Assembly (NCBI GenBank): GCA_002633005.1
Contig: NMRA01000417.1
Span: forward strand, 343,183 to 407,182
From: Phoronis australis
Taxonomy: Eukaryota; Animalia; Phoronida
Direction of reading: 5' to 3'
Length of the DNA stretch: 64,000 nt
In this document: one piece after another, positions 18,501-58,350 of the stretch
Layout: every line of letters begins with the position of its first letter
How positions within the stretch are numbered: the stretch's first letter is position 1
The notes under the pieces: model-generated
What the model saw: only the letters and a program-made list of their open reading frames with translations
Database searches by the model: none
Told to the model about the DNA's origin: nothing
Made by a program: the position numbers and the translations under genes

Positions 18501-18525
18501 ATCAAAAATTACGTACTCGGTGTTA
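15506..18525. repeat. ~1.33-kb direct duplication (15506-16835 and 17194-18525) across an N gap
   Basis: Both copies begin tggagaaatttactggtcag and end gtactcggtgtta, with scattered substitutions. Gap at 17134-17193. The ORF track shows duplicated short ORFs. Confidence 0.85.
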
Positions 18526-29635: not shown

Positions 29636-30110
29636 CAAGTTTTAAGTATTTTAATAGCAGCAAAGAGAGTTTTAACTAATTTTGCTGCTGCGAAGCTGTC
29701 ATCTTTTCCCGAGAGAAGTTGAAGTTTTAGGAAATGGCGGGTGCGCCTGTCACAAGTTTACTGTTTTCAAAACGACGACAATTTTTTCTTTGTTACAAAA
29801 GGCGGAGAATAATACAAGCAAATGACGTTTATTAGACTGTTTTTTCACTAAAACGGCTGCAACGGGAAAGGTGANNNNNNNNNNNNNNNNNNNNNNNNNN
29901 NNNNNNNNNNNNNNNNNNNNNNNNNNNNNNNNNNNNNNNNNNNNNNNNNNNNNNNNNNNNNNNNNNNNNNNNNNNNNNNNNNNNNNNNNNNNNNNNNNNN
30001 NNNNNNNNNNNNNNNNNNNNNNNNNNNNNNNNNNNNNNNNNNNNNNNNNNNNNNNNNNNNNNNNNNNNNNNNNNNNNNNNNNNNNNNNNNNNNNNNNNNN
30101 NNNNNNNNNN

Positions 30111-30300: not shown

Positions 30301-32310
30301 CGTGACTGTTTTTGGGTGCGTAAGCTATGCTGTAGAGTGCGGGTCGTGTTTGCAAGTCAGTTAGCTGTGTTTGCCGTGTTTTTGAGCGTTGTTCGGGTTG
30401 CCTAAATACAGGCTAAATTGCAGTTTTATTCATGAAAAGTGACTTGAGACTTACACAAGAAATTTAGTCTTACGTTCCCACTTCAAAATCACTGAATACA
30501 TTTTTAAAAAGATATTATGAGTAGTAAATCTCAACCTAAAAATAATTTAAGCAAAAGTAATGGGTATGCCAAAGACTTTGTACTTTTTTGCTAAACTGAG
30601 ATTAAATAAATATTTTTTTTAATATTGCTTCTGCGTTTTCCATGAATGAATTAAGTCGTTAGTCTCTTTTCATCAGTAGACCGCTGTCGTGTACAGTGAT
30701 AAATTACATTTGAATTATGCCGGAACTCTAGTACAACTCTCCGTTTCTTTTTTATATTAACTTTCCGCAACGTGGAGTTTAACTTGTCCTTTGCTTACTT
30801 GTACATTACATTGGATCGTGACAATTGTGATAGTGAACCAAGCAAAGTCTCGATTTTACTGCGGAGTCGGTTAATTTTTAATTTTAAATTTTAATTTCTC
30901 ACCGTTGCTTCTTTTGATAAATTAAAGGCTACCGAACTACACTACCAATACTTCAAATACTTCAATATGTACAACTCACCAATTTTGTCTGACGATGGGT
31001 GCTACAGTGTCTTCTTGAGCTTTCATTCTTTTAAAATCTCTTCAAGAGCTGCGTCAGACCGTTGGCATGTGGACCCACAGAAATCTACCCCTACCTTCTA
31101 GATGTCGCCACCGGCTGTCTTCCTGGTGAGATATTCAAACTTCACACGTTAAGGCAGAGTTGACTGACCCGTGATTTGTGAAGTGTTCACATGCCGTTCG
31201 ATCAGGATGAACATTTCGAGTCTGTTCTACCTTTTAAAAATCACAATTTGCTCCGAGGACGTAATGTTTAGCGCCTGATTTCCCTTTCTCATTAGACGCC
31301 ATACCTGCCTTCTTTTAAAACTTCCATATGTGAACGCGGTAAGTGACCTACAGCCCTTCATTCCACCGTAATCATTTCGCTATGAAAATATTCTGAGTTC
31401 AATTTTGAATTTTTTTTTGTATCAAAGAGGTACTTTCCTACACCGTGAGCTATTTACCGTGATCCATTTGTCTAGGCTCAGGTACGAACGCCGATGTGTG
31501 GATCAAGTTAAGGGGAGAGCTAGGAACCTCGAGGTGGTACAGTCTTCGCTTGCTGCACGCCTCCCAGCCACCGGCACCGGCACTGCACTTTGGACAAAGG
31601 GCAATTTTCCTGATGTACACCCAGAGTAAGCGTTGTGTAGTCTGGTGTTCTGGGGGAAGGGAGGGATGTTACCGTATGCACATTGTGAACTCGCCAAGAC
31701 TTCGGAGAGCTAAGAGCTCGACTGGTTTCCTCAAGTAAAAATTAGGTGACTTCACAATTGAATGAACTAAAGGCTACTTAACCTGCGGTCTAATATCCAA
31801 GACTTAATGTGAGCTGTCACTAGCTCAGCTAATTTTCAATTGAAGGAGCAAGCTGTGCTCGTAGCTTTACGTCTGGGCTGACAATATGGCATAGTTGATA
31901 GAAAAGGGGTATATTAGGAATGATTGTGCGACTCATGATTATTCTGACCTTTGCCAGGCTGAAACGCTGTGCAATAGTTCCCCATGTTTTACATTATTAT
32001 TGACTTTCAATGGGCCGGTCTCAGACCCCAAAACGTGATAATGACCGAGTCACCTTTTGGAGTCTGAAACCAAACATATTGAGTGTGAACCTTAGTATCA
32101 AATAGTGACTGAGATTATGAATGTGATTGCATCAGTCTGTTTTTGTTCGAGATTTTGTGGGAATGCATGCTATCAACATATACGCCAATGCTCAATAGTA
32201 GAAAACGAAATGTGTAGATGCCACGGAAACAGTTTGAGGTCACGACCGCAGCCGACACAGAGGCTGACGTCGGGCAATGGACCGAAACAATCGACGAATC
32301 AGAACGAAAT

Positions 32311-35300: not shown

Positions 35301-35493
35301 AACCTTACCTTTGTATGAGGCCGTGTTTACTTCCTCTCATAGAAGCACCCTTTTTACGCAATCTCAGATTCTGTTGGCACGGCTGCAAGCCATTTCACCA
35401 TGTATTTAAAGGGCTCGCGAAATCGAGGCTGTTAATCTATCACCACTAGTACACGCACGCCCTCTAGTTATTGTAGATTTTCCGAATAGCCCC
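32311..35493. mobile_element. Decayed ISL2EU-type DNA transposon: THAP relic (+) and YqaJ/lambda-exonuclease relic (-)
   Basis: TIRs GGGGCTATTCGGA / TCCGAATAGCCCC, subterminal TGTACTAGTGGTGAT / ATCACCACTAGTACA, AT on both flanks. Plus strand: C*FPWCKSSTGGHKFPKDLRLLYSWTTAVNR...RVCS, donor gtaagt at ~32645, then GKKKQLKPTA*PSI at ~33296. Minus strand ~33700-34185: GTMCKSVALEKCE...VYPDELYLTATQISLVGED and LKLKKT*SH..LVQ...VFTFKGLIVDVI...LKLDLF, a degraded YqaJ pattern. Confidence 0.7.
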
Positions 35494-37404
35494 ATTGCAG
35501 TGTCCGCTATTCGCGACTGGACTTTGACAGTCTGAGTAAAAGCTTCGGTTACATTTCAAAGTTCGAGACACATATTACCTACACTAAAGCGGCTAGAAAA
35601 TAAAATCGTGGTTCAATAAAAGAATTTATTACTCGTCAAATTCGTTCCCTAAGTCTTCCTAACTAACAAATCAATACTATCTGTCATTGCATATATACTG
35701 TCAACTGATCGACGTCTTCCACTGATGACATCACGTGTCGGAAAATCAAAAAATCATTAATTTTCTTTGAAATTCAAAATTCTTCAATTATTTCCCAAAA
35801 ATAAGTGATTGTTTACTTAGATCTTGTGTTATGAATAAAATTATTGTACACGTTCTAAAAACCTCAAACGTGTAAAAATCCGTTGTAGGAACCCTTTAAA
35901 CGGAATTAAAGCACCACCATCTTGTAGAAACGGTCAACATGGAGATGGCAACAGCCAGTATAGAAAATTATTGACACCTGAGTACAGACTTTTGGTGACT
36001 TTATCATTTTATAATCTGACCAAATTAAAATATAAATAGTACTATTGACCAAGGAAATTCGCTTTTCATTCATCCCGCCTCGACGCCAGATGTTTCTATT
36101 TGCGATCTGACCACATACCCTGACAAGGAATTGATGACAATACATCAAAGCAGGTACGGAGAGGCAATACATCGTCTGTGGACACCAAAGGTGTACCGGC
36201 GATGACCCTGAAATGAGAATGATCAAATGGCTCTATTTTTGATTCACTGTCAAAACCCCAGTTATATTCCTCTTTGTTTTGCTGAACTGAATATGCTAAC
36301 TGTACATATAGGCCACCTGACCAAAAATGTGATCATGACAATACGAAAAACATGGGTGTCAGCTGACGATTTCGTAACATGTGCTCAAGTAAATAGTATA
36401 GTAATAGAATTGAATGGAAATTGGTTGTAAGAGTAAATCCAACTCAAAAACATGAAAAGGGACAAAGTTTATTGACAGGTAAGTATAACTATGAAGTTGT
36501 TAAGGTTTAAGTATTTCAATATGTTATAACTCAAGAGTTGTCGCCATCTCCCGATGATATCCATCGGTTAGCAAATAACCAGCGTGGCTACTAGCCCTAC
36601 AAGCAGGGTATGTGCACCAACTAAGTAAGGATAAGTTAAAATCTGAAGAAATAAGTATATAATAAGTGCGATAAAACAAATTTAGGCTGATCCTCTGGGC
36701 GCATCAGATGAAATGGACCGCGAGAGAGAAATATAGCTGTCTATTGGTTCATCTTATCTGATATAACACTCGGCATATGTCCATATTTCTTTAAATGAAG
36801 TTCGCAAAATGCCATAGCGAACTTTCAAAATGTCCATTTTGAAATTTCAGTGAAAAGCGAAGATTGCCAATAGCTATTGTGAAGCGCTTTGTATATTTAC
36901 GAGGAACAAGGCGATTCCTGACTTATGGCACTCGTCTTCTTATTCATTACTGCAACGGATAATTATCTGCTCGCTCAGTGTTTTACCCTGTGGAAGGTTC
37001 TAACAGTTTCACTGTGTACAGTTTTGATCTTGATCATATTAGCATCATCGTCAATTCCGTTACTCGTATAGTGCCTTTTGGTGTGTCACATGGTCAACGG
37101 CACGGTTCAATGGTTATTATTAGGGGTTATTGACTCGAGCAAACTTGTGACGTGTTTATGAAATTATGTCATCATAGCAACGATAATGAAATCGGCCCAC
37201 ATTGTAGAAGATATTCTGATCTGTCCAAGGAAGCATGCTAAGAACGATTTATCTATCCTGTTCAGAACAAAGTAAATCAGTATAGGTCTTTGAGAATAAA
37301 ACAAGCAGTGATACTCCGCGAATATCGACATTTTCGTGGTCAGGTGGATTCTAGTTGTTACATATTAATATATACATAACGATTGTTTTTTTTGATACTT
37401 GCAG

Positions 37405-37468
37405 ATTGGCTTGGTGAACTCGAACATTTGGCTGTGTTCAACAGGGGATCACAAAGTAGTGAAAAATG
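37405..37468 (+). CDS. PKD1-family (polycystin-1-like) gene, PLAT-domain exon
   Basis: ttgcAG acceptor at 37404. WLGELEHLAVFNRGSQSSEKW matches PLAT LGxLxxIxxxHDNSG..xW. Phase-2 donor TG|GTAGGA. Confidence 0.75.
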
Positions 37469-37798
37469 GTAGGACTTCTTAGAAGATATAGACTATTCTT
37501 GTTCGTATTTATTTCCACGAGCCCCTAGTGGAGTTGTAGGTGGCGCATCTGTGTGTGTTAAAACTTCACTGAAATTGGGATTGCTTACATTTAACGATTG
37601 TTAAGTTATTTTCGTCTAACGAGGAAATAGATTATGTTAAAGAATATCATTAAACAATTCGCTCGAGCTAACATTTACCAAGTTTATTATTATGAGATTT
37701 TAGGAAACATGCTTGCTTTAGTGCCATAAAACAAGATATATTTCAGCATCAGTTGTAACTTCAAACGGCCAATTGATGATATTTGCAATTTATTTAAG

Positions 37799-37927
37799 GC
37801 AACTGAGCGACATCTCCGTGTATGACTTGACGAGACAGGTGAAGTGGTATTTTCCGTGTTTCCGATGGATATGCCCATCTTTGTGGTACCTTTTCCAACC
37901 GTCAAAGGGTGGCGCAGGATTCTGGAG
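37799..37927 (+). CDS. PKD1-family gene, PLAT C-terminal exon
   Basis: Acceptor tatttaAG at 37798 completes the TGG codon. (W)QLSDISVYDLTRQVKWYFPCFRWICPSLW...GFWR matches PLAT WxLxxVxVxD..T...WxFxCxxW. Phase-2 donor AG|GTATTA. Confidence 0.8.
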
Positions 37928-38055
37928 GTATTAATTGCTCATAAACAACTGGTATATTTTTCTGCAAGGAAGTGGAATGCACCCAATCGAGTTCAGAAAT
38001 TGCCATTTGGTACGTTTTTTAATAATTACCTTTTCAACCAGGCATTTTATTTCAG

Positions 38056-41000
38056 AATATTTGTGCGTACGTTTGCCACTGCCTCTGGTCGTTACAACAT
38101 TTGGTACACAGCTTTGACTGGACCCGCCGGCTCGCAGTCAGCCATGACGTGGCTGATGAATGTGACACTGTGCTGGTGTGTCTTGTGTAACATCCTGCTC
38201 GTCTCAATAGTCCCCTTCATAATTCCTTGGGCAGATATCGGTGGGCAGCAGCTGGTCGACTTCTTCGGCTTCAAGTCATTGCGTCACATCACGCTGACCA
38301 GTCACCTGGAGATCAACACGGAGCTGGTACTCCTTGGTTGTATCTTCAACATGAGTGTTTTTGCCCTGAACCTCATCTGGGAGATAATTATTCGCCATAC
38401 GCGCCGCCCAACTGGACAGGTTTACTATGACATGCAAGAGTTTCAAATGTGCTGTGACAAGTGGAAGAAAGAGAAGGCTGCTAAACTTGCTGCAACGAAG
38501 GATCAAAGCTTGTCTTTAAAGCAACGAATGAAACAAATGGCCATCGCGTCAACGACATCATTGAAAAATCTTTCGAGCGGCATGAAACGTAAAAAGGATG
38601 CTATAGCTACATCTGCTATTGGTAAGGCTATGAAATCAGCTTCAAAGAAGCTTTCATCATTAAGTCCAAGCCCTAAACGAAAAGCGTACGAAGCTAAACA
38701 AGTGTTGTCAGCCTCAGTTTCAAAGGTCAAATCAACGCTTGGTAAAAGTCAGCCTACCGAAAGTTTCCAAAAACAAACCAGAGCTGTTGACCCTAGCCAG
38801 GCATTTCCAGCGAAGATGGCAGGCACCGCAAAAAATGCTGTGGATAGCGTGAGGGGTATGTTCTATTGTGGTAAACCCCAAAGCATCGTCCAGCAAACCA
38901 CAAAAACAGCCCAAGCAGTACGCCGGGTATTTCAGAAACTCAAAGATTGCCTTATTCCCAAAAGGTCTGGTGGGGCAAAGCAAACACAACATCTTGCGGC
39001 AATGGAATCAGTGAAGGTTGCCCCGAAAGCTGTTCCTGACGTGATGGAGCGGAAGCTTGATCAATGGTACGAGTCAAAATTTGCGACACCTGGACTTAGA
39101 TCAGAAACTCTTATTGAGGTCAAAGATAAGGAACCAGCATCAGATGGCTTAAAGTCAAAAGCCTTGCATCACGACCCAAGGCAGCCTTTAATCCCGTTTG
39201 TGTTTCCATCCAAAACTGAAAAAAAGAAAACAAAAGGATCACGACTTAAGTTGTCGGTCAGTCTTATGAAGCTGGTCTTGCGTGACGACCAGTTAAAGCG
39301 TCTGTTTTCCGAAATCGGGGAAGAGACGGATCGCTTTGAGAAAAAATCAGACAAACACTACGAATGGGAATTTTATAGAAAACGGAGTGGCAAAAAGTCG
39401 AAAAAGGGTTTGCATCCACTTCAGATGGCGAGCAGCATGCAAGCATTAGTTGAACATGACAGGAAAATGAAGGGGGCGTTGGACAAAATATCGCATTATG
39501 CTGAACAGAGAGAGGAGAAGCTGTCTAAACAGGATGCCTCGTTTTGGCACTTAAGACGAAGAAGTGCTACAAAGCACAATATTGAGGAAGATAAAAAGCT
39601 CATGGTATCTTTTTTAAAGAGTATCAGTAAACGAGAAGATAATGAAATGGTGCCAATTACTGGAGTAAGTGCAGGTGAAACTGTCGCTTCTAAAAAAGAC
39701 ATCTCTCTCCCTGAAACAAAAAATGCGATATCTGAAAAGACGTTGGCAAAGACCGAATCAAAGAAAAGCGTGAAATCGTCTCCCGAAAAAAATATACCAA
39801 AATCCCTAACTAAAATTGCGTCAGGTGAAAGGGTTTCAAAAAACAAAGATAAGTCCGGTAGTGATGAGTCTAAAAAAAGTAAAAAGGGCAAAGCAAACAA
39901 AAAAGACAAGAACAAAAATGAAGAAGATAAAAGTAACGATAAGAAAAAAGTAAAAAAATTAAGTAGTGTTAAGAAAGCAAAAAAGGATAATGAGAAAATT
40001 ACAGATAAAACTTCAAGCAGTGGTATTTCGAAAAAAAACATAGGCAAAAGTAAAAGCAAAGAAAATGAAATAGATAAAGCATCAGTCGGTGGTAAGAAAG
40101 ACAAAAAGGTGAAAGATAAAAAGGGTAAAAAAGATAAAAGCGTCGTTGCCAAGAAGGGCAGTGCAAAAGGCAAGAAAGACAACAAAAAGGATAAGAAGAA
40201 AGACAAGAATAAATCAGCAAATGCATCAAATAAAAACTTTAATAATCCGCCAAGTGAATTGGAAGCAAACCTTTCAGCTGCCATGCAGGACAATAACTAT
40301 GGAATATTTCCAACCAAACATACTCATTACAGCAAAAACATTCCGAATGTGCCCTCTACTGAACATGCCTTAGAGAACTCTGAACTTGGATCTCCGCATA
40401 AACCTAATTTAGATAACACTCATTGTCACGAAAATGGTGGTTCACTTTTGTCACCGCACATAATATCCCATTCAAGAGCGAAACTCACCCATGTCAACGA
40501 CCTAGGGCTTGATCAAGAAGAACCTGGTATGAAAGAAGGCAATACTAAGCGTAATGATCCGGTGATCAAAAGAATAAGAAAGTCTAAAGCGAAAAGTGAC
40601 AACGATGACAGCGAAAAAAAGAAAACAGATGTAAGAAGCATACAAGAACATTCTAGTCATTCAAAGAAACTAAAACCAATTAATAGAATTAAAATACAAA
40701 AGAAAAAACGCTTGTCTAAATGGAATCAGGAATCGTCTGAGAATCAGAGAGAACTAACCAGACATAAAGACAAACAGGCTCGGGAAGTCGAAATGAATGC
40801 ATCTGAGCAACACTACGTAACTGATGACAAACTGTCATTAAATCAAGCCGCGAGGGTAGATGACCTCACAAAACGTAGAAATTCCCAAATTCTTACGGAT
40901 AATTTTGAAATACAAATGAAGCTCCTTGAGAACGTCCACGAATCAAAGGATGAAGTGAAACGCCACCACCATAGCCATAAACCAAAAAAGCACAAATCAA

Positions 41001-44000
41001 GGAGGAAACCTGGGTCCAAGAACATCGTATCGCCCAACAAAAATTATAATAGCTCGCGCCACCCGTCAAAAGATGCAGGGTCTACGGGCGGTTCAACGTT
41101 TGGAGATGGCAACGACGCTGAAATTTCAAAAGACAAAACATTCGATTTCACATACTTTGACATAAAGGCCTACTTTGAAGCGATAGGTGTGGAAGCCAGA
41201 GCCATAAGGCTTCCTCGTTATGTAAACGCCCTCACAGTTGATGATTTAAGTATAAAAAACGCTGTAAACAAAGAATTTATTGATAATCTTATGTCAATTG
41301 ATCACGATGTACAAAGAAGTGTACAGAAAGCAATAGAAGAATATAACGGCAAGAAGAAGACAACCTTATCCACTTGTACAGGTTTAGTTGTTGAAAAAAT
41401 GAAGTCTGGTCGGAAATCAGGGCTCAAGGAACAAACAAGGAAGATTGCTGAGGACAAAAGTTTGAAAAAGTCTTCAAGTGATAAAATCAAGCAAACATGC
41501 TCGTGTTGCCCGTTTGTGAAGAGAAATGATGGTGCTAAAGAAGACCATGCAAGCAAGGTCCATGATCGTAAGATAGATTATAAGGAAACGAAGTTAGAAA
41601 ATATAAACAAGGAAACAGGAGACGCTAAAGAGTGGGATAGCAAAGAGTTACCACAGCATAAAAAGACAACATTGTCGGAAATAGATGACACGCACAAGAA
41701 AACAAGGGCTTCAAAGCAACAGATGAATCATGAATCTTACACGCGCATTGGTCAGGTAAAAAACTTGGAGAGTAAGGACGAGCCAACAAATCAATGTTAC
41801 ATTAACACTGCTGGGAATGCAAATGCAGCTGAAAAGGTCAGCGTAAATGCAAACAACGATCCAGATGATTCTCACAAAGAAAGCAGCTCTTCCTCAGAGA
41901 AGAGTCTTACGGATTATGATGATGCGGTTCCTAAAAAGAAGAAACAAAAAACCATCAAGAAAAAAATAGGAAGTATGATTGACTCGCTTAAACGGAGGTT
42001 ATCAAAAGGCAGTCGGAGAAAGTCGTCTTTCGATCAGACACCCATACAAGTAGAGAGAGGCTTAGATAAAGCGAAGATTCCTAGCAAGCACCCACGGAAA
42101 GGAAGCAAAGATAAACATAAAGACAATATAGGTCGTTCTCTTAAAGACCCAAGAAACAAGAAGATATCTCTCATTGTGCAGCCAAGTGAATCATTTCGTG
42201 GCTACGTCACAGACGAAGTCAAACTTCGATTTCAAGAATTTTCAGTGGAACTCTCTCGAAGATTACTGGTTCTTCAGGATGACCAGCTGCAAGGTCGACG
42301 ATATCTTCGACAAGGAATAGGCGAACCGTTGCCACAAAGGACGTCAGGCAGGAAATCGGGCCAGAGCAGCAAAGACACAACATATCTAGCCAATCTTCAC
42401 AAAGCTACCGATGTTTCAAAGGTTACACTGCAATCGTGCGAAACTCAAGAAAATACCTTTGCGACGATACTGCCAACTGGAATAGACTCGCGGAAGGAGA
42501 CCAAACAAAAACGCAGTGAACAACAAACAGAAGCTTTAACAATTGAAATAAGGCGACAAGTAGATCAATCGAAAAAAAAATTGCTGGACCCCTTACTACT
42601 CCCGGACTATCTACCTCGGACACCACGGTCGTCTAAGATGGAACCCAACCTAGATACGTGTCTTCAAAATGAAACCAGTGACGGTAATGAAAAGAATCTT
42701 AAACGGCATCTCCTTGAGAATAACGCAGACAATGAAAATTTTGGAGAAAAAAGAAATGGTGAAATAAAAATGAAAACTGAAGATATGACCAATCAGTCAC
42801 TAGAGCAAAATGTAAATGCCGACACAGTGGGGGGTGTTGAATTGTCTAAGAATGAAAACGCAAGGGACTTTTCTGGGTACAATTTAGAAGAACCAACGCT
42901 AATGGAAAAGGTAAGCGATATAATGCAGATTAGCCTCGATTCTCTCTCTAAAATGATGCTCCAACAAAACGCAAACTCAACAGGAACATCTAAAAAACAA
43001 GATCGGAATGAATCACACGAAGACCTGTTGGAAAATGCCCGTGCAATTATCGCCTTGTCTGTGTGCAAAATTGCAGAGGAGTTGTCAAAAATGAACGATT
43101 CTGGTGAGTTGAAAGAGATGATAAAGGATTCGTGCATAAAGGTCCGCGTTTCACAAAACGCTCTTCTTGTCGAAGACGTTGCAAAGGCTAAAGCTTCTGG
43201 CAATCTAAGTCGACATGACTACAGTTCTGTTCAGTTCGAACAAGTGAAAGACATGGTTTCGAAAACAGTATCAGGCGTTGCACTAGCCATGAATGTTCGA
43301 AAAGAATCAGTCCCTGTGAAATATCCAATAAGTCAAGAGGTGTGTGATGTTTTGGATCTTACAACTCAAGATCTTGTTTCTCTAATGCTTTTGACAATTT
43401 CTAACACGATCGCTAACGAAGCAGGCACTAAGGGACTCTATGGCACCATCACATACGACGATACTCGAGAACCTATGTCGAGATATATGAGAGCCGCAGT
43501 AGGGCTTGCAAAGTATTCTCTACAGAAAATAGAAGATTCCATGCCTCAAAACATTATCCCTGATAAAAATAAACAGCAAGTGTATATACCTTTTGACGAA
43601 AAGAATGAAGTGTATAAAGTTCTCAAAAGCCTTACAAGCAACGTCGCACAGAATTTCTGCTCCAAACCAAAAAACCAAATTATGTCGAAAAGCGACACAA
43701 AATTATCAAAAGAAGTAACTCAAGAAATTGACCTAGCAGCAAAAGACATGGTGACTGTGATGCTTCTACAAACATCAGGGGTCCTGTCAAGGATGGAACG
43801 TTCTGGAGAGCTACAAGTGGCAGTTGCGCAAAGTATGAAGAGTGCTGATAAGCTGAATAAGTTATCAGACCCATCTCATTTAGGAAAGGTTCTTGGAGTA
43901 GCTCAATCGTCTCTCGGAAAAATCGATGGCGATCTCACGTCCGGAATGACCATTCGCGTCTCAAAAGAGTTGGCAGATGAGCACAGTGTTGAACAATTGA

Positions 44001-47000
44001 GACGGAAGCTCGCTAAGCATATCGTAGACTCTGTAATGACCCAAGCAACCAGCAGTTTGTCGATGACTATACAAGTACCATCAAGCAGTGGCCCTAAAGT
44101 GACAATACATGACCTAATGCGACTTGGTAGAAAGGATCCTCGTTTCGCAATGAGAGTGCTCGTGCAGAAGATCGAGGCTAATCTTAAGAAAACATACGGA
44201 GTTCTTCGAGACTTTGGGGCTAAAGGCGTTATGTATAAAGCCTCCAAGCGAATAGGTACGTTGAAAGACGACTCGTACAAAAGAGCGAAGATGATAGTGG
44301 AAACGACGGTGCATAAAATCTGCAAAACCGTTGACGAAAGTGAAATTCTTAGAGGGGTGAATGAACATGTAAGAAAAGTATTGGACGAATTGAAATGTCT
44401 AATGTGCATTGACTTGATTTCACCTGACTCCGATATGACTGTACAAGCAAAAAAGTCAAAACAAAGGGAACGAGAATGGAAAAAGAAATCGCGTCAGCTC
44501 CAGGAAAGTTTATCTATCAAACAGGAAGTTGCCCAAATTAAAGAATCGTTGATGTACATCGATACAGAGCTAGACAATGCTAGGAAAATTGCAAACGACA
44601 TTGCGTTTGCCCAAATCGAAACAAATAGATCTACCATGAGAAATTTGGATGAAGTGAAAAAGAACCTTGAGAACATTGCATATAATTTACATACTCATGG
44701 CAGTAAAACTGATGTGAAAAGCATTAATGACGTCATTGAACATGCTAAAAAGGTGACTGAGGAAATAACGTCTGTGCATTGTCAAATGACTAAGGCCACA
44801 AGAAGTCATTTAGTTATTGTTCGTCAAAACTTAGACAATTTGGCAAAGAAAATCGTTAATAGAAACAACAACATGGCGGAATTTGACGAAAATCAACTTC
44901 AAAAGCAAAGCTGCCTTTGGTCCCTGCAATCATCGTCGCTAAGCCTGGCGAGAATCGTATGGGACGAAGGCCCTTTCAAAGTCGAGCATGTGTCTGGCCA
45001 GTGCCACACAGCAACTCAGTTAACTGACGAGTTAGATGAAAAGCCTTTGTCGTCCCTCGCGTCAACCGTTGACGTTGCAAATATTTGTCTTCGACGAATC
45101 ACAAAGGAACTTAGCGCTATGGAGTTAGAGCTTCATCCTGTTGCCAACAACGTGTCTTTGCGTGTAGCATTAAAACTATCAAATTCGGCCATGTTAGACA
45201 TAGAGCACGCACTTGCATCTTTCCGTGCTGAAACTGTCAAAGGCTCTAAAAGGCGCGTTTTTCTAAAGCTACCTCTGCAAATTTCGACATTTATCAAATG
45301 CCTGGAAAATGTTTGGTGGCAATTTAAACAACTTTCAAGGCTTATTGGAGGACAAACATTAACACGGAAAGGAAGCGGGGAGACGGTTGTGCACGACGCC
45401 ATGGCTAACATTCTGACCTCTTTGTTACAAGTACGAAGTCAACTACAAAACATCCAGTGTGTGCACTCGACAACTGAAGGTCTTTCACTGAAGGAAACGT
45501 TGTCTAGTACAAGGGACGTGATATCAAATGTAATGAATACTATGAAAAGCCAATGTTCATTAACACAGGACATTCGCGAGTCATTGCAGATTGCAAGTGA
45601 CTTGGCACTTGCGTCGCTCGACAATATAGAGCTAGGTTTATTTCAATGTGTCACTGCCACAAATACAGCACCAACACTTGGATCATTAGAGAATCCTGTT
45701 CTTATAAAGATAGTTGTCTCTTTTATGCTATCTGTCCTTGAAACGCTTATAGAAAACGAAGTCGACCTGGAAAAGGCTACAATTAGCAGTGTCGATGCCA
45801 TGGGCATGCTCAGGACTGTGTTGATTGAATTGGATCGTGAAATAAGCTTAAAATGTAAACCAAGGGATATGAGCCACCTGAGCGTCGCAGAAAGTAATCA
45901 AACAAAACGTGCCATTAACGAGGCTATTACATGCGTGCTTAATGTAGAGCACGTTGTGAGAAATGCCTCCTCGTCAAAAAAATTTCGTATGGATGGTCGA
46001 ACTCTGTTACCTCTTGCCTCAATGTTGAGAAAAACCCAATCTTATAGCCTGTTTGGAAATTCAGAAACATTTGTTAATATAGGTGGTAGATGCTGGTCTT
46101 CTGAAGATCTCGATATCCCGGATGATCCTTATATGGAGTACTTCACGTGTTGGAAGGACTCTGTAGAATTAACAAAAAGTGTAATGACTTCATTGCAAAA
46201 CAACGACAATAATGATGTCCATTTTGTTACCTATAATACTCCTGGTATTCTAACAAGGAGTTATCATGATCTAAGGCGAGAATATTTGAAACTGATGCAA
46301 CTTTCGCTGTGTGCAATGGAAGACGAGTTCGACGATTTGGTTATTGTTGATGATATGAGCACAAGGAACAACCTTTCAAACGAAAATGCACAAACAAATA
46401 ATGATGATTCAACCAAGTTGGTTAGGAAAGCCTCCTTGCTTGTGAAAGGAATCAAGTGTTTGGTAGATGGCGAATTGGTGTTCTCTTCAAATGATCGCCG
46501 TCAAGCAGACGATAACGATTTTCTGTTCGATATGCCAACGGAACTTAACAAAAACAATGCTAACGCATGTGCCAATTCTGTACTTCTCCCAGTGTTTGTC
46601 CAGTTTGCAAAGGAAATCGTCACACACTCGCTGAGTACGCCACGGACGATCCAAATGAGAAGCATTAACCAAAAACAAAGCTCATTTGCTTTAGTTGAGA
46701 CAGTCAAGAAAACTATTTTGGACAGTATTGAGCCATTGCACTCACACAAACTTGTGTCAAGAGTGGCCTCGTATTTACAGGAACAGTGTGATGCAGCAAA
46801 ACGTGACGAACAAGTTGATATGGAAACTATGAAAGACGCACTAACAAAGGTAATGAAGGCACTCGAAACATTTAAAGACGGAAACGCCACAGCCTTCAAG
46901 ACTCCAGAAGCTGTTCTCGGTCATAGAGAAAAAAATACAACTGATCACGACGTTCACCTGAATTGTGCCATATTTCTTGTTACAAAGTCTTTAGAGGAAA

Positions 47001-50000
47001 TATGCGAAGAACTTGACATGAAAGGGAAACAAATAAAAGAACACATCATTCCCTCTTCTACAACTTTGGATACCTCGTCGGTATGTTTGACGCAATCCAC
47101 TCAAGCTACCGTTATTAACGGCCAGGTTGAACTGGAAAACAATCAACCTATGGTCCGTTCGGCGAAAGAAAGTGCGAAAAGCCTGATTTCATGTGCGTTG
47201 ACTGAAATCGAAAAAAAAGGTCTGAAAGGGTCTGATTTAGGCGTCAGAGCTGCAAATCCTGATGTTTGTCTAAAATTGTATGGAAATTGTTCTGCTTGCA
47301 CTGTTGCTGCACAGTGTTTGGTTAGGTCGAATTTATTAGATGTTGCCATCAGCAACTTTGCTGGAGACAAAAATGCTCCAGGCCACTGTGAAAGCTGCCG
47401 TTCCGTTGAATTGACAATGAAGACGCCTTCTCAACAAGGTCACGCCAGCGTAGGTTCTCAAAGTCAACCATTTGTAGCTTCACTAGGTACGTCGACCTCT
47501 CTCATACCCCGTCAGTCGAAAGGAACGCAAGTGCGAACTCTTCGCGGTTTACACAGTAGCTTGACGTCAAGTGTCTCTGTGGGTACTCAAGTCCATGCAA
47601 GACGCAAATCAGTGTACAAATCCCGCTCGGAGGAGTGGAGAATTTCCATGGATGAAATAGCCAAAACGGCTAGTACTTTACTACAAAACATTGTTAGCAA
47701 CGCCGAAAACAAAAAGCGGTTAGAAAAATCCTCCATGAAATCTCGCAACGTAGTTTGCAGATGTCTTCTCAAAATAGATGATGTCTTGAAGGACGCTCTT
47801 GGCAAGGATTTTGGTGTCTTAGATGCCTTGAAATACAAAAAGTCTGGTGAAATTGCCAGTTCTCTGGTGAAAGCTATTTGTGCAGACATAGAACAGGGCT
47901 TGGAAGCAGTCGCCGACGATAAAGACTCGTTAGGCTTGCAACATAAATTGGGTCAGAATAAATTGCACAATTCATTTAAGGCCGATTTTTGCGCAGATCT
48001 ATATTCGACTGTATTCAAAGGGCATGATTTCTTTGAAAACAATCTAGGTTCGTCAAACCAAACTGTCGAGGAAGCATTAGAGACTATTGCGATATTACCC
48101 GAGAACAGTGAAAACATGTCAATAAAACAAAATGAATCGAATGCTGAGGGTGAAAGTTCTAACCTGCATGAGATGGTCAGTGACACAAGACTCGTCTCTG
48201 CAGATGATTCTGATGGAAAAGCAACTGCAAGTTTGTTTTATACTCCAGGTAGGGAGGTTGTACAGTTAGACACAAGCCGAACATATACTGTGCAAACTGC
48301 CTTGCAAGGTCACAAGACGTGGAATCCTGGCGAAAGTTGTGACATACTCGAGGGAGCGGAAGATCAAATGAGACGAAGGCAGTCACTGAGCGTTGGCGGG
48401 GTTGACTTCTTTCAAGCACGGGATGACAGTCTGCTGTCAGCGTCTTTCCCCAAGATGAGGTTTCTAATTTTGCCCTCGTCTCATTCTAGTCAAAAAATGA
48501 TATTACCACCCGTCGATATCTCTCAAAGTAACTCAAAGAACCGAGCAATAATGAAGCAGGACTCGTCTGTGAATGATGTCTTAACCAACGCAGTAGCAAT
48601 GACTAATTTACCTGAAGAAAAGGAATGTGGCAAAAACAGTCTTATGTTAAGAACTGTTATTTTAGACGGAGTCAAACTCCGGGATGACTCGTGCTATCAG
48701 CACAGTCTGACGCCATCTGAGCCATCGACACAACTTCCAGTAAGAAATTACACATCCACAGACCCTGTTATAACATCCACTATGACAGCAACAATTCGTC
48801 CTACCACATTAACAAGTCCAAATCAATCGCTGGATGATGAACGGCAACACTTTTTGGAAACCCTATGCAGCTCTTATATGCAACTAGACACGATTGCAAC
48901 TCATCCACAGTGCAGCTCTAGCGACTTCCAGATATTCGAAAACAGTAGAGGAGACGTTGAAACATCTTTAGATATTTTAGGTGGTGCAAAACAAAAACGT
49001 AAGCGTCGCACTTCAATGAAGTTACCTAACGAGAAAACGGATATTGTGGATGGTACACCGGGAACCAGAAACATTATTTCAATGGATCCGCTCAAAGTTG
49101 ACCACAGATTCGTCATCACCTCAGTTGATGAGTTAAAGAATATGAAAAATCAAGCCAAACAAGGAGATGATTGCGATCCCAGTCTTACAAGGGCTAGAAC
49201 TCTTGTGAAAAATAGTTTGCAGGAGCTTCAAGACTCCAATGATACAGACTGGACTGTAAAAAATGTCAATGATGTCCAAGAGCTAAGAAATATTCAGCTG
49301 TGTTCTAAAAGTGCTGACATCAAAGATGTGGCGTCTGAAATTGTCAGAAAATCTTTCAGTCGTGCAAAGCTACAGTCTCGCTCATCTGGACGTATCGATG
49401 GTAAATCAGTGTCTGTGAAAAGATTGCGAACAACTGTGCACCCAAAGATAGATGCAATTCGGCGTCGTATGTTCAAAGATTCCGAACTGTCGTGTCAGAA
49501 GAGTGACCCTGGTCCTCTTCTTCCAATAGACGTAGTGAAACGAAAGTCGGTTTCTAATGACGTGATGACAGACTTTAAACTGGTGAACAGAAAAATTATA
49601 GTTACTGCCAGCTCAAGTGTTGACACTCTAGGCATGGACTTGGAACCAGTGGAAGATGATACAATGCCAGCGAATGTACAAAAAAGTGACGTCATTGAAT
49701 CATCGTGTAGCGAGAACACAAAACTAGAGGAAAAAATAAAATGTGACAAAGACATTCTAAAAACGTTATCGGGAAATTTAAGAACCGATGAAAAAGTTCT
49801 TCCACTAAAAACTAGTACATGCTTTTCTGCCAATGGCGCTACAATATCTTGTGAAGCAGAAACAACCAACACAAAAAGACAAAGCAGCCTAGGTATACGA
49901 CTAAGAATGTCATCTGAGTCTCCAGAAAGTCTACGGAATGCTTCGTGGATGTTAGTGGCGCAAGTAGAGTGTGAAGTGCAAGCGTTATTGAATAGAATGT

Positions 50001-53000
50001 TTAGGCCCATGTCTCTGCCCGCTATGAACAGACGTCCTGTTTTTGACGAACACTCTCTTCGAGTACTTCAAACTAAAAATACAAGCAACCATCCAATCGA
50101 GAACAGGATTACTCAGCAAGAACAAACGTTTAGCAATGCCAATCAAAATGACAGGCTCAGAGACATTGCAACTAGTACAACTCAGCTGATTGTCCCAGCA
50201 GACCCAGCGCAAGTGTCTGAGAAAAATGCTCAAGGGAGACGGTATGCAGTCGTTGAGTCAAAAAGTGCAACCTCGCTGCTGACGAATAAGGGAGAAAGCA
50301 AAGCAAACAACTTCAAAGCAGTCTCAGTCTTGCGCAACATCAAGCGATCTACTTGTGGTGTGCTCAGTGAAATACTAAGTTGTCAAGAAAAACATAACGT
50401 TGTCGTCATGGCACCAAGCACAGCTATCGGTAGTGATGGTTCTTCAATAAAGGACTTCGTAAAGCACGGAACAACGGTCAATTCTAGCCAGAACAGTGGA
50501 CATTCGTCCATCATCTCTGCCGCTTGCAGGACGTGTGAAGACACTGAATCCATGAGCCCGCTCTCCCTTCCGAGTCCCGAGTCTAATAAGCTACTGCTTC
50601 GCACTCGCCGACCCTTTACAAGGAGATTGTCGACACACGGCTTAACTGAGCATGTTCGGCCAAGTGTAGACGAGACGTTACCTCTGCTACCGGTGTCACA
50701 TGAAGGAGAGCTTGATACAACGGCCGTTCTTCACGAACGCTTATTGGATAAATTTGATGATGACACGTATGACATTAAAGGTCCGCTTACTCAAGTAAGC
50801 GAAAGAGCACTATCTTCTTCAAAATTCACATCCACTGAAACTATAACATCGGTGAGCTCTTTACTCTCAAAAATGGTTCATCATGATAGCACACCATGTA
50901 CATTAGGTTCAAGTGACTTGCAACGGTGGTCAACTTTTTCCGTGGCAACAGAGAATGAAAGGACAGCATATGATGTCGTGGACACCAAGTTGACTAAGAA
51001 AACTGCCCTGTCAGTTATAATGGACTATGTGTCGGAGTCTGAAAGCGAAGACCTAGGAAATACGAAAGGTGACATGCAATCACATAGGAGTAATGAGGGT
51101 ATCAGCATAGATGTGCAACCAGCAGATGAAAAGCCACCAAGTGATCAAAATTCATGTACAAATTTTCAGGAGCTGAAGCATTCTAGAAGCATTAAGCCGG
51201 TCAATCCTGATTTATTATTGCTTTGTTACGTCAACCCCGGAACAAAGCAATCAACTGATCCGCTTTCAGACTTCTACAAACCCCGTAACAGATGTCTGGA
51301 TACCTTGAGAATTGGACAAACTGGACATGAAGTATCCGAAGTTTCGCCAAACAAGGAAATAGTTGAGGATGCAAAATCATCGTCGGTTACGGTTAGGGAT
51401 GCGAGTACAGTCCCCAACGAGAAAGAAGTAGTTATCTCCATGCCAGGCGAAGAATCACCAATTTCTGCTAAGTCCGATATTTTTTATGGTGTGTCTGGAA
51501 GTAAGTCTTCTCATGCCAGCTCACCATTTAAAATCCGCCGTAATCCCGTGGACGGAACATACGACAATCGCATAAGGCACAAAAGTGGCCAGATGAGTGC
51601 TATTGATGAAGAAATTTGCCAGGCAACAACACCCAATAATGTTGTCACTAATCGACACGAGCTGATGGCAGAGCCTCAAGGCACTTCACTAAGCCGAACA
51701 AGTACGTGCGAAGATATTATTCAAATGGAACATCCAATCAGTGTAGATGACGCGATACGCAATGTGTGTGACCATCTGATGGATGGCGAAAGTATGGCTA
51801 GTTTATTTTTGAAGAAAGGTGACCATGAAGAAAGTTCTGCTGACCACAACAATTTTGCTGACCTTAAAGACTTTCAGTCACAGAATGGTGCATGGGAGAG
51901 GCATCATGACGTACACATTGAATCTACTGCTGAACGGTCAAGTGGAATGCCAGTTTGTAGACTCCAGTCCATGAATAAGGAAGTGGATAGTCCCAAAGAT
52001 TGTGCACTTACGATTGACATTGATGCTACATCGCGTGCAACGGAAAGGTTAGGTACCATTGTTGGGAATGAACAGAAGACAAATGTTGCCCAAGAAGTCT
52101 CGCATGAATCAAACAGTCCAACTGCTCACGTTATGATTCCTGTCCAATTTCCAAATAACATCTTACTCAATACGCCTGAACTTTGCCGTACAAGCCAGCC
52201 ACTCAACAAAGCACAGCTTCCTTCAAGAACCATAAAAAGATGTATTGCAGAAAATGAACATTTCAGTTCAGGAATGCATTGGGATAAAACTATTGGTGGA
52301 AAGCTGGAACGATTTATGTATCAAATACAGGAACTGGAGTCTACCTGTTGTGCACTTGGTGTTTCGCACGGGACCTCTTCCGTGACCAAACTGTTTACTG
52401 CCATCTCGAGCTTCAATCGCATGCCTTGCGGAGGAAGAAATGCCTTCAAGAAGCTATTCGAAGCCCTTGAGCCGCTAGAAAGTCCGCAGTCGCTGAAGAA
52501 TGTGTCCGTTGTTCTCTCAATGTTTACATCTACCATGAACGAACTCTGTGATTTGTCAACTGGTAACTTTGACTCCTCGAACTTATCCCAGAAGGTCGAA
52601 ATGTTTTGCTCTTTGATGGCGCAGCTGTCTTTGCATATTCAGAATCAGCAACCGAAGTTACCAGATAGTGGCGCTATCCATCCACCAGTTTTGTCAACGA
52701 GAGAGTCTTCGAATTCACACTTCAGTCGTATAAACCTTAGCATCAACAAGCGTATGCACTCTGTGAATAATTCACCAAACCACGGGCACGAAGAAAATTC
52801 GAAGGAATGTGTGAACAGTCGGACCATTTCTCTTGTAACGAAACAAGACGCGAAAAACGGGAATAGCATGGCCTCCAGTGATGAAACCCATAAGAAAGGT
52901 CATGGACAACGAGTAGAAGATTTACCCCCGAGGGATCCTATGCGTGCAGGAAAGAGTTTAAAGTTTCCAAGAGCACCAGCGGCAAGTGGTATAGAAGACT

Positions 53001-53909
53001 CAACTCCTGGATCGTCAACATCAGTCGTGTCAGTTGGTGATCAGCCTGCCGACTCCTGGTGGTTCATGACGAGTTCTACTGCTGGAACTTTGCAGCTTAT
53101 GAAAAACCAATTGAGCGGGGTGGAGAAGGATCGTCGACTCGTCAGCTTTAAAACTAGAGACGCAGCACATTGGAAAATCTCCAATGCTTCTGTGCCAAAG
53201 ATATTTAGACAAGATGACTATCAGCCAAGACGACAAACAGACCAGCCAAAAACACCCATAAGCTATCACGGATCACAAGAGAGCACGGCGACCGTCTGCA
53301 AGTTGTCACCACCATATAAACTAGACAGCAGTGATGCTTCAAGGGTAGAGGCTATCGACGAATACAGGTGTAAGAAAAGGTCAAATGAGAATGCCTATGG
53401 GTTGTCGAGCATAAGCCGGATAATTGCATCATCTGCGAGTAGACGGAAACTGTCGGAACAGTTCAAACCAAAAGAGCAGAAGCTCAACGTTTCGACCGGT
53501 ACTGTGGAACCAGAGGCAGCGGCTTCACCCATGTGTGCAGTTCCGTTGCAGCACATCCCAGTTCAAGATGGCTCTGTGTTGGCTGACTCAGGTTCTTCCA
53601 CACTTGTCTCGAGTTCTTCAACATCGTTCTACGCCACCACTGATCTTGATGAAGACACATCACGGACATCTTTAGTACAAATCGCTCTGTCTAAAGAGTC
53701 GGCAGGTACAACGGAGAAAGCCCAGAAACTCTTACCTGTAGATTGTGACGCCGTTGCTTCGGATCACGAGTCGTCCAATTCTCTTTTTCATGGAGCAAGT
53801 CCAGGTTCAAACACGTCTACTGTGTCGTCAGGGGCAACCACGCTTATCGATGGTTATCAGGCTATTTCTGCGTCTGCTGGAGCTACTCATCGGGAAGGAG
53901 ATTTGCAAG
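38056..53909 (+). CDS. PKD1-family gene, giant 15,854-nt exon (TM2, TM3 and most of the TM3-TM4 insertion)
   Basis: Lies in the 5373-codon ORF 37844-53965. Acceptor ttttatttcAG at 38055 is phase-compatible with the previous exon. YNIWYTALTGPAGSQSAMTWLMNVTLCWCVLCNILLVSIVPF aligns to polycystin-1 HIWxS..RP..S.FTRxQR..C..LL (TM2); LVLLGCIFNMSVFALNLIWEIIIRHTR fits TM3. Phase-1 donor CAAG|GTAAGT at 53909/10. Confidence 0.88.
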
Positions 53910-53994
53910 GTAAGTCGGTCTGCTCAGGTAGTCAGCTGAGCATCGTGTGGCTTCAACACTTATAATCTTTGCGATTAAAAAGGGTCCCTGTTGC

Positions 53995-54070
53995 ATTCTC
54001 TCTATCTCTCTCTCCCTATCCCTTCCAACGTCCCACTCCCTCCCCCTCTCCCCCCCTCTCTCTCCTTCTG
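53995..54070. repeat. CT/C-rich microsatellite inside intron 53910-54410
   Basis: Directly visible; supports this interval being intronic. Confidence 0.85.
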
Positions 54071-54410
54071 CTGTTGGAAACAGAAAAGAGTAGAGCATGA
54101 GCAGAATTATGATCAGCTTAACACACGAGGGGATCGTTATTTCACTTGTGGGGTCGTGTTTAAGACATCGCTATCAAATACCACTCTGTGTCGTTTTTCA
54201 AAGACAAGGAACGATTTGGGATCATTTTACCGGGTCCAGGCTTTGTGCTCAGGCGCACTCGATACGACATCTTTTGACTAGACATCTTGAATATTCACCA
54301 ACATTGCGATTATGTCATTTTGTTGTCGTGAACCAACGCACACAAAACGTTTTTCATGAGATATCATATTAAGTGCAATGACCTTAATATGTTCATTTTA
54401 AATGCTGTAG

Positions 54411-56119
54411 ATGGGCTGGGTACTTTTGCACCGCGATCCGGAAGCCTTGATGCCGCGTTGACGCAGTCATCCCCGAGTACAATGCTAATGGAGCTGGCGG
54501 TCAGAAACCCCACTTTACAGAGTAAACTGGAACAGTTCCTCAACAGATACGACCAAAATCTGCCCGATCCTTTTTTCGAATGCCTCACGGAATACATCAA
54601 AGAGCTGTTGTCCGAGGCACGTACAGAACGCCTTCAAAGTATGGAGAAAAGTCTTCTTAGTCAAGCCTTATCCAGCCCTTTCATACAATCGGTAATAACA
54701 AACAATGTTATTGCCGAGCAATGGAATGTTGTAATAGAAGAACGAATACAAAGCGAGGGCCCATCAGAGGTGGTTGTTGACCACGCGCCAACATCCAAGC
54801 CTTCGTCGCCACCGCCGATTTATGACAGAAACAACAACGCTCGAGTATCGGACTATCAAAAAAATAACTCGGCCAATACCATGGTGTCGGACAGTCTTGA
54901 AAGTCAAGAGTTGATTTCAAATTCCATCCGCTACTGGCAGCACAAGATTCAGCGTGGAGCACGCAGCGCTATGGATGCAACAGTACGGGCCATACGCTTT
55001 ATGTCAGGAGATGCTGTCGCTGACGATCGCAGCACATCCACGCCGAAAGCCAATGAGACTTTCCCTTCTAATATGAGAATAGTCCGTGGCCAGATGTCTT
55101 ATCCTGGTAACGTAACTACTGGACGCATGACTCATGACACAGCTAGCTGTAAATCATCTTCCTCTGAGATACTGACAATGCCTCGCCACTGTGAGCCCCA
55201 TAACAAACCTTCGCACTCAACCCAACCAAAACTGTCAACCTTGTTTTACCCGGACGCAACACGAGCCATTCAGCTGTCAAGCAAGCAACCCACAGATGAA
55301 AATCAAAATGCTAGTCCCAGTCTCATCCCAAAATGCGTGAGTCCAGGCCTGTTTACCATTCCTAATCAAACTCCGTATGTCAACGAAAACGCGGTTTATC
55401 GTGATTACGACGGAACCTACTCAGTTATCCCAAGAGCCAATGACCAATTTCTGGAGGAGTGTGCCGAGATAACGTTCGCCCGTATACTCGATCACTATGG
55501 TTTTTTCGCCACCAAGGAGCAGTGCGATCGTTGCATGGGAGATATTTATATCTTTCTAAAGCGTGCCCAAGATGAGATTTCGAAGTATTCGGAGCAGTAC
55601 GAGAAACTGCAGAAAAAAGCTCAGGAATGCATCAGATACAAACTCAGTGACATCGACGTCGATGTCAAAACCGTGGAAGATACTATCCGCGTGCTCGCGT
55701 GTGTCCAAACTGACCTCGACGACATCAAGGACATGCTGCTAGATTGGAACAGCGCCACACACTTACCCTCGCATCTCACAATCATAAACGATCAGCACAC
55801 GTGGTTTCCCAAGTTTCCGGATGCCGATAAAGCTGAGCAAGAAGAATATCTGACATATATCGAGAACCTTTACTACGAAACCAGGCAAAAGACATGGCTA
55901 CCTGCGTGGGTGTCCTACTTCATGTTTCTAATCCTATTCTCATCCGGATCAGTCTCCCTTATTCTTTTGGCTCTATTCGGCATGGGCATGGCGCCTTCTA
56001 TGTCCTATCAGTGGGTAGTGTCTGCTACAGTCTGCCTGACTGAACACGTACTTTACTTTGAACTTTCTAAAGTGTTTATGATAGCAATATATGCTGGCTT
56101 TAAGAGGACGTATTTGTAG
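54411..56119 (+). CDS. PKD1-family gene, terminal exon (end of insertion, TM4-TM5, stop)
   Basis: Acceptor gctgtAG at 54410 gives G+AT=Asp in frame with ORF 54356-56119. Ends WLPAWVSYFMFLILFSSGSVSLILLALFGMGMAPSMSYQWVVSATVCLTEHVLYFELSKVFMIAIYAGFKRTYL*, matching polycystin-1 LPxW...TM4...G....xWxxS...S....EPxKV...A. AATAAA at 56476. Confidence 0.85.
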
Positions 56120-56624
56120 CTAGATTTGTTTTGATACTATTTACATCAGTGCAATGTGCAAAAACAGGAAACTAAAGGATACTAAAACTTTATCTATTTA
56201 TTTATTTAATTTTGTAGAAAAGAACTTTGTTTCCAAGTAAAATTTTATCATTTCCAACTTGCAGTTTTATTATGACAAGAAAATAACGTCCATATAGTGT
56301 GGTTGGTAGTAAAGAAAAGTGAAGTTGGGTGGAACAGGTTGGGCAAAGACGACAGTCAGGTTAAAACTCCACGTCTGTTGACTTGCACGTGCGCTACACA
56401 CGCTTCACTCAGCACACGTTCTTGTTCTTGTTGATTAAAGATTTCGATGCCATTTTAATAAGATAATTAGTTACTAATAAACTTGCCATTGTTACTGTAG
56501 TCACCACGAAGATTTGATCTCTGTGGGCGACCGTCGTTCGTAGGTAGAAAATGCTTATCCATATTCAAAATTAAAATTACGTTGTTGTTTGTATGACATA
56601 TTCTGAGCATGGAGCTAAGAGCTT

Positions 56625-56990: not shown

Positions 56991-58187
56991 ATACTAGCAC
57001 AGATGATAGATAACAAATTGTGCGTAAAATAGGAGGATAGTAAATTAGATAACTATGAAATATTGTCTTCTGACTGTATTCGTTTGATGTAACTTTCTTC
57101 CATATTTTTTGTTTAAATTATGAATCATTTCGTATAAATATAGAATGCGTGTATTTAATACGGTGTATTAATGTATCTGAGCAATAATTAAAGCAACATG
57201 TTTAGTCAGTGATCCCGCTTGAACGTGCAACTCTTCTCACCTACACAATTTTCTGCTAGATATTGATTTGTAGTGTTATGGAATTCTTCGTATTTTCGTT
57301 CCTCCATTACGCCCCTACATAATCACGAAGAGACATTTTTTAGCTGAACCCGTTAACCCAAGTCATATCTGTTGAAGTTTATTTTTTTAAAGCGGAGGCT
57401 TAGTGTCAAAAGATGTATGAGTGATATTATTAATAGCGGATTTGCAGCGCAAACGAACTACGCATTGCGCATGTGCGAGTTACTTACTGCGCGAATGCTC
57501 ATGGGATAGCTTGTGGTCAGACATGTCTTGAGCAGGCTGGATAGTGTGTGCATTTGGAGTGATTTGCAAACTAAAAACCATGTTTCATTTTTTTGCTTTA
57601 TAATACCAAGCAAGTCCTCTCTCTCGTTAGTAAACACAGCGTAGCTATGATCAGTGACCGTGTGACCGAGGGCACAACTGTCGTCATGATGTTCAGCATT
57701 GGGGCTATCGGCGTTGATTTCGAAATCTCCTCCGGTTTCAGACAAGTTGAGAGTTCTTGGGTTGCTTAACTTTTGTTAATTTTAAGAGGAAACTCCGTCG
57801 GAATGTTGTTCTCATACGTCTTTTTTGCACCAGGAAAATGTTCGCTGCACACACGATGGCCCCTAGGCAAATGCCGCAGGCATTCAGGGGCGATAGTACA
57901 TCCTCACAAAAAGTTACTCATTTCAAAATACAGCAAATAAAACCAAATAAACCATACATGTAGGAACACGGAGTAATTAACACATACCACGACTCTGGAT
58001 ACAATTTAGTCAGCAAAACTTGAACAAATCGATGAAAATCTGTCGCGGTTTGCTCGAGCTTTTCTCAGTTACCGGGTGCCATTTTGAGGAAGTTAGTGAA
58101 ATTACGCATGTTGACGAATAAAAAGTCTAAGGGACACACATCTTACAAGTTTCACCCGATACCCTCTCATGCTATTTTACAAGTGTC

Positions 58188-58350
58188 GCGCGCTAGCGTC
58201 ACGCGCTAGCGTCACGCGCTAGCGTCACGCGCTAGCGTCACGCGCTAGCGTCACGCGCTAGCGTCACGCGCTAGCGTCACGCGCTAGCGTCACGCGCTAG
58301 CGTCACGCGCTAGCGTCACGCGCTAGCGTCACGCGCTAGCGTCACGCGCT
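58188..58350. repeat. Perfect 13-bp tandem array (CGCGCTAGCGTCA)n, ~12 units
   Basis: Directly visible; the units are identical and have no spacers. Confidence 0.95.

Follow-up and report, generated by a model that had tools for sequence, protein, structure and literature searches.

The 64,000-nucleotide stretch of Phoronis australis DNA analysed here (contig NMRA01000417.1, positions 343,183 to 407,182; hereafter the window) carries a spliced gene on its plus strand whose visible product resembles polycystin-1 weakly at its two ends and has a giant loop between the predicted transmembrane helices TM3 and TM4. Three RNA runs from 2026 (X5, X6 and X7, from the same study and with the same species label), together with likewise labelled DNA runs, were compared with the window. 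The features of the gene are as follows.

31047..31125 (+): upstream coding exon with a linker and the first PLAT strand; donor from the RNA junction to 31476, start inferred (acceptor AG, frame, bin depth)
31476..31625 (+): PLAT exon, absent from the initial annotation; RNA junctions on both sides, Pfam PF01477
37405..37468 (+): PLAT exon (exon 1 of the initial annotation); RNA junctions
37799..37927 (+): end of the PLAT domain (exon 2 of the initial annotation); RNA junction, position and motif
38056..53909 (+): giant 15,854-nt exon with TM2, TM3 and 5,170 loop residues; open frame and full RNA cover
38168..38392 (+): predicted TM2 (aa 179-197) and TM3 (aa 227-253); hydropathy peaks 2.59 and 1.68
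39314..43003 (+): Lys-rich, low-hydrophobicity loop part (aa 561-1790); net charge +6.3 per 100 aa, 21% hydrophobic
43004..48013 (+): central loop part, rich in predicted amphipathic helices (aa 1791-3460); 23 of 35 pattern matches
48014..55414 (+): Ser/Thr-rich loop part (aa 3461-5760), across a 501-nt intron; 21% Ser+Thr
54411..56119 (+): last coding exon with the loop end, TM4, TM5 and stop; RNA junction and cover, PDB and Atlas matches
55907..56101 (+): predicted TM4 (aa 5925-5947) and TM5 with the following helix (aa 5960-5989); hydropathy, polycystin-1 alignment
56120..56182 (+): short 3' UTR; read-end clusters at 56177 and 56182
56265..56285 (+): minor alternative last exon, spliced from 37927 in a few reads

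The initial annotation had described the neighbours of this gene as otherwise decayed, which seems not to apply to all of them: a two-exon Ly6/uPAR (three-finger) gene with a hydrophobic tail at about 12300-13480 (+), whose first exon matches Pfam Toxin_TOLIP (E=2e-4) and UPAR_LY6 (E=4e-4), appears intact. At about 62200-63300 (−) lies what by eye resembles a decayed LINE-type reverse-transcriptase fragment. The 5.8-kb intron of the gene holds a 3.19-kb repeat (32308-35496) bounded by terminal inverted repeats of 20 nt (95%) and carrying inner ones of 15 nt, in which AT flanks both sides of a GGGGC...GCCCC core; reads of diverged copies were present on both strands in all four runs, and a spliced form (32644/33296) was seen. 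This repeat is likely a non-autonomous DNA transposon, and its AT duplication resembles that of ISL2EU/Harbinger-type elements. A 1-kb repeat flanks the gene in two 78%-identical copies (19248-20247 and 59457-60442), and one and the same 13-nt unit forms two arrays of 12-13 almost perfect copies each, at 58185-58350 and 63297-63455. Near-identical (98%) duplications lie beside N runs (15506-16835 and 17194-18525; 14022-14916; 62998-63746); they are possibly assembly joins of two alleles and may explain the unseen 5' exons of the gene.

Gene structure, transcription and variation

The initial annotation had joined the four exons from 37405 to 56119, with GT-AG sites and matching phases, into one frame, and all of this was recovered: the AG and GT ends lie where it had placed them, and the joined frame comprises 5,917 codons plus a stop. 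All 5,284 codons of the giant exon are free of stops in this frame, against 144-438 stops in the five other frames, and the chance of such a stop-free frame, calculated from base composition, is about 1e-149. Two further upstream coding exons (31047-31125 and 31476-31625) bring the gene to six exons and its product to at least 5,994 residues (~668 kDa). The visible six-exon product has no initiator Met and its N-terminus lies outside view; given that the exon at 31047..31125 is without a Met, still further exons upstream of 31047 are required.

Reads of X5 and X6 are stranded and lie on the gene in the sense direction only. The upstream junctions were covered at 31125/31476 (22 reads in X5 and 19 in X6) and at 31625/37405 (48 and 33), the latter being found via a loose end at 37405. 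The three junctions predicted by the initial annotation were all present in both runs: 37468/37799 (41 and 26), 37927/38056 (27 and 27) and 53909/54411 (65 and 38), the last showing that the giant exon and the last exon are spliced together and belong to one gene rather than two. Depth over the giant exon was 33-104 in all 23 bins lying wholly within it, and no internal RNA joint was found there in X5 or X6. A form skipping from 37927 to 56265, whose product would end a few residues past PLAT, was represented by three reads in X5 and none in X6; constitutive removal of the giant exon was therefore rejected, the exon being kept in nearly all junction reads. Depth was ~25-55 near the 5' end and climbed to ~100 near the 3' end, reads crossed the stop at 56119 with many ending at 56177-56182, and a depth of 6-8 persisted to 57000.

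The gene was expressed at ~40 reads per kb per million in both X5 and X6 and had 0 reads in X7, indicating on/off expression between samples; the 2,615 X7 reads placed on 30320-38400 fell nearly all on the intronic repeat. It is spliced and strongly transcribed in two of the three RNA samples, one single 18-kb molecule being beyond the proof of short reads. In DNA run X1 the stretch lies whole within one contig, which is not independent support because X1 is possibly the source of the window. An assembly artefact or a pseudogene was ruled out by the RNA junctions, the RNA cover and the single DNA contig.

For 40 of the 81 differences listed between reads or contigs and the window, the 36 in coding sequence were analysed. 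These 36 comprised 13 silent and 23 replacement changes with no stops and no fixed frameshift, and the indels among the differences covered were single-base calls in a minority of reads (at most 13 of 77), none of them fixed. The resulting pN/pS was 0.49-0.66 (p 0.04-0.16, and p=0.16 once transition bias was allowed for), a weak constraint on the residues that qualifies the earlier argument for selection.

Polycystin-1 resemblance and the end after TM5

The exon at 31476..31625 matched Pfam PF01477 (PLAT) at E=0.034 with 15.3 bits (cut-off 23) over profile positions 12-56 of 117, an E-value that refers to 24,736 models and corresponds to ~1e-6 for a single family named beforehand. The score is weak because only single exons could be scanned, and the match fell on one of four PLAT exons; the PLAT domain of the PKD1 family is thereby represented by a sub-threshold score on an RNA-verified exon. 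Scanned alone, the exon at 37799..37927 gave no database match, PDB searches with single PLAT exons returned unrelated chance matches only, and chance Pfam matches at E 0.01-0.09 arose in 11 of 157 non-gene frames. At the other end, all three PDB matches of the last 115 residues were to polycystin-1, at TM4-TM5 (E 2.2-2.6), with a gap-free alignment to the human protein over 74 aa (E=2.2). The top ESM Atlas cluster for the last 239 residues was 'polycystic kidney disease protein 1-like 2' (PKD1L2) at 0.91 with 198 of 256 features, under low Atlas recognition (1688). The TM4-TM5 unit of the family is therefore present at weak scores in both PDB and Atlas; TM4 reaches a hydropathy of 2.34, and TM5 stays below the 1.6 threshold. 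The TM2-TM3 region shows two hydrophobic peaks at the position expected and had no Pfam or PDB match; sequence motifs there and in the PLAT end (37799..37927) resemble those of polycystins. A single-sequence structure model reached only pLDDT 45, too poor to bear on the relationship, with no Foldseek match at E<=0.001.

The polycystin-like matches are collinear, occurring along the gene in the order expected. Homology of the ends to polycystin-1 thus appears weak and concordant, with every score sub-threshold, and it carries weight because the family had been named in advance and the matches are correctly ordered on verified exons. That the initial annotation had assigned the terminal segments to a polycystin agrees with Pfam PLAT, PDB and Atlas, which all name it, each below threshold. 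Upstream, REJ or GPS was found in none of the 108 plus-strand frames scanned between 13.7 and 31.1 kb (116 listed), and no convincing GPS motif or TM1 exon was found in 1-31047; GPS and TM1 could sit beyond the window, fall in the gap at 29875-30110 or have disappeared.

The stop codon (56117-56119) comes right after TM5, with only about five residues following the last helix, and RNA reads continue across it into the UTR. Among the RNA joints listed none departs from the last exon, at a depth of 70-110, and none of the 49 downstream frames matched a polycystin family. The protein is without TM6-11 and the TOP/channel half. The C-terminal coiled coil that binds PKD2 is likewise missing from its end, two heptad-like stretches occurring in the loop instead (aa 2292 and 5830). 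Given that possession of the channel domain serves in PMC5318412 as the test of a bona fide pkd gene, we file this gene as PKD1-derived and not as a full member. The initial annotation had not drawn out the end after TM5 or the loss of the channel half.

The TM3-TM4 loop

The loop spans ~5,670 residues (about 254 to 5921), as the initial annotation had it, and makes up 94.6% of the 5,994 visible residues; with two upstream exons added, the very large share claimed for it stands and the exact figure of more than 95% does not. The loop had also been called an insertion. Its length is confirmed, and in-exon expansion fits better than an inserted exon cassette because the loop shares exons with the helices at both ends, TM2-3 lying within the giant exon and TM4-5 in the last exon together with the loop's final 500 residues. 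No Pfam domain was found over the giant exon at E<=1 and its sub-pieces gave chance-level matches only, ruling out a captured domain or transposon. A recent tandem duplication was rejected as well, the coding DNA showing only 9-15-nt periods and short diverged repeats; self-comparison of the loop protein was marginal (best pairs 55 and 59 versus shuffled maxima of 37-49 and 34-51), and its BLAST self-match gave the diagonal only. Relatives were found neither by word search nor in metagenome contigs, and phmmer with the last exon against 1.84 billion representatives returned none, blanks of this kind being weak evidence; as no relative was found in these sequence searches, the layout is so far represented by a single species. 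A gene of this type is missed by domain searches, 95% of it matching nothing and its ends scoring below every threshold.

The Lys-rich and Ser/Thr-rich arms of the loop are likely disordered, judging from composition, and a single-sequence AlphaFold model of the core between them was helical at pLDDT 37. Amphipathic spacing of the AKAP type (Ala first) gave 35 matches in the loop versus 15±4 after shuffling, with none of 300 shuffles reaching that number, and the same pattern gave 22 matches on the reversed loop sequence. By contrast, an AKAP consensus was not enriched (8 versus 5.5 expected, reached in 102 of 500 shuffles). None of 14 loop helix fragments matched an RII-binding family, and a cross-validated motif search of the loop found nothing. 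Two helix patterns with 10 and 9 matches (versus fewer than 1) were written after seeing the sequence and are not counted. Judged by their pattern, the predicted amphipathic helices are real; the AKAP-like spacing suggests a candidate feature only, AKAP identity being beyond pattern evidence.

RRxS/T sites numbered 10 versus 2.7 expected (0 of 500 shuffles) and the reversed motif 2. This excess is due in part to the frequency of RR pairs themselves; given an RR pair, S/T followed in 10 of 29 cases (p=0.028, one of several tests). N-glycosylation sequons were slightly depleted (41 versus 50-52, with 479-484 of 500 shuffles reaching 41), and one borderline hydrophobic stretch lies inside the loop (aa 2684-2702, 1.62).

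Interpretation and comparison with known systems

We favour, at a probability of roughly 0.6, a membrane protein that derives from polycystin-1 and has lost the channel half, and whose loop would act as a membrane-tethered cytoplasmic scaffold. PLAT and TM2-TM5, with the unseen TM1, would anchor the protein in the membrane and direct its trafficking as they do in PC1, whose PLAT domain interacts with membrane lipids and, itself under the control of PKA, governs trafficking (PMC9672506). Because TM6-11 and the C-terminal coiled coil are absent, it would not be a pore subunit of a PKD2 channel. The extracellular ends of TM2-3 and TM4-5 of human PC1 are placed near residues 3297 and 3579 (PMC11458180), so that the loop between TM3 and TM4 would lie inside the cell, in line with the slight depletion of sequons in it. 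There a helical core that binds partners would be framed by disordered arms, one basic and one Ser/Thr-rich, and the RRxS/T sites suggest cAMP/PKA control. In view of the on/off expression and the record of the family, in which PKDREJ and SpREJ1-4 are sperm proteins (PMC1934368), the gene would most likely act in specialised cells that carry cilia or flagella, for example sperm; that record, and the use of giant PKA-linked scaffolds by flagella, make a sperm role plausible. The scaffold proposed by the initial annotation gains support in this way, and none of the contrary results that it had named was obtained; that the loop is a scaffold is something we infer. A more specific version, tentative and on balance unlikely, would have a PKD1 paralogue rebuilt as a multivalent scaffold for PKA and D/D domains in the sperm flagellum or in some other ciliated cell, an invertebrate structure convergent with the FSIP2/AKAP4 sheath and attached directly to the membrane. 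In it the channel half would have been dropped, and the 5,670-residue loop would have arisen in its place with many AKAP-like helices and PKA sites.

The loop could instead be a loosely constrained spacer grown by drift within the exon after the channel role was lost, with only frame and rough composition kept. The pN/pS of 0.49-0.66, not significant with transition bias, agrees with this, as do the low complexity and the absence of a domain or relative. However, no stop or frameshift interrupts 17 kb in three or more individuals or samples, expression is high and restricted, and the composition is zoned, with a helical core of 1,670 aa; these points speak against it, and we hold a mere spacer to be rather improbable. 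Still less probable is that the 18-kb frame is divided between two products, one with PLAT, TM2 and TM3 and a giant one that is soluble or anchored by TM4-5, through an internal promoter, an internal poly(A) site or proteolysis. Such a split would account for the rise in depth towards the 3' end and for a read-end cluster at 46391 in X6 (16 of 51), the minor short isoform agrees with it, and short reads cannot show one molecule. Yet the rise is gradual, as 3' bias would give, with no gap or joint in the exon; the cluster appears in one of two runs and adjoins A-rich sequence; and in PC1 a single fold includes both TM3 and TM4.

Chance likeness of the ends in a protein unrelated to polycystin-1 would be compatible with the uniformly sub-threshold scores and the poor structure model, although three libraries name the family predicted in advance, with matches located and ordered as expected, which leaves chance a very small share. 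As for a full 11-helix form, in which alternative splicing or read-through would join TM6-11 exons downstream, the low depth continuing to 57000 and the end of the window at 64000 leave it some room. Against this stand a last exon from which no listed joint departs, read ends piling up 60 nt past the stop and downstream frames blank for the polycystin family, and we consider such a form the least probable of all. Under the preferred reading of a channel-less, scaffold-bearing derivative of polycystin-1, the gene shows that the PLAT and TM2-5 unit can stand alone and bear a loop about 20 times longer, which bears on the function of the non-channel half of PC1 and offers a natural test case.

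Flagella contain large scaffolds tied to PKA anchoring, namely FSIP2, AKAP3 and AKAP4 (PMC11506864), and AKAP helices carry hydrophobic residues at positions 2, 5, 6, 9, 10, 13, 14 and 17 (PMC12083921). This spacing is frequent in the predicted helical core of the loop, and the likeness to these scaffolds is one of analogy only; AKAP3 and AKAP4 arose in tetrapods and amniotes according to the same source (PMC12083921). No sequence relationship of the loop to FSIP2, AKAP3 or AKAP4 was found in Pfam, RII-family and word searches. None of the three is known to span the membrane.

With the PKD1 family (human PC1, PKD1L1-3, PKDREJ and SpREJ3-6; 11 helices) the protein would share the order PLAT, TM2, TM3, cytoplasmic loop, TM4, TM5, with TM2 and TM3 putative, and it differs in being without TM6-11, the TOP domain and the coiled-coil tail. 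REJ is regarded as the family-defining domain (PMC1934368). From the outer loop of TM2-3 to that of TM4-5 there are ~5,740 residues here versus ~280 in human PC1 (PMC11458180), and the visible 5,994 aa exceed both PC1 (4,303 aa; PMC11448475) and zebrafish Pkd1 (4,608 aa; PMC5318412), the bulk of which is extracellular, whereas the loop here would lie inside. Channel loss is shared with family members of fewer helices: SpREJ7 has six predicted transmembrane segments and SpREJ1/2/8/9 have one or two (PMC1934368), and teleost pkd1l3 remnants and stickleback Pkd1b provide further precedents (PMC5318412). The fish cases are, however, treated as remnants or incomplete models (PMC5318412), whereas the stop here is RNA-supported. 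The largest SpREJ has 3,716 aa, and none of the proteins described in these two sources has a giant TM3-TM4 loop (PMC1934368; PMC5318412). Full-text searches of the open-access literature, read at the level of listings and abstracts, likewise turned up no polycystin with such a loop, bearing out at that level the statement of the initial annotation that no described polycystin is known to have this layout. Taken together, channel-less proteins of the PKD1 family are known, and the giant TM3-TM4 loop, predicted from sequence in one species, appears new among them: polycystin-1 proteins are known as large, outward-directed receptors paired with PKD2 channels, whereas here the bulk would lie inside, in a protein without the channel half.
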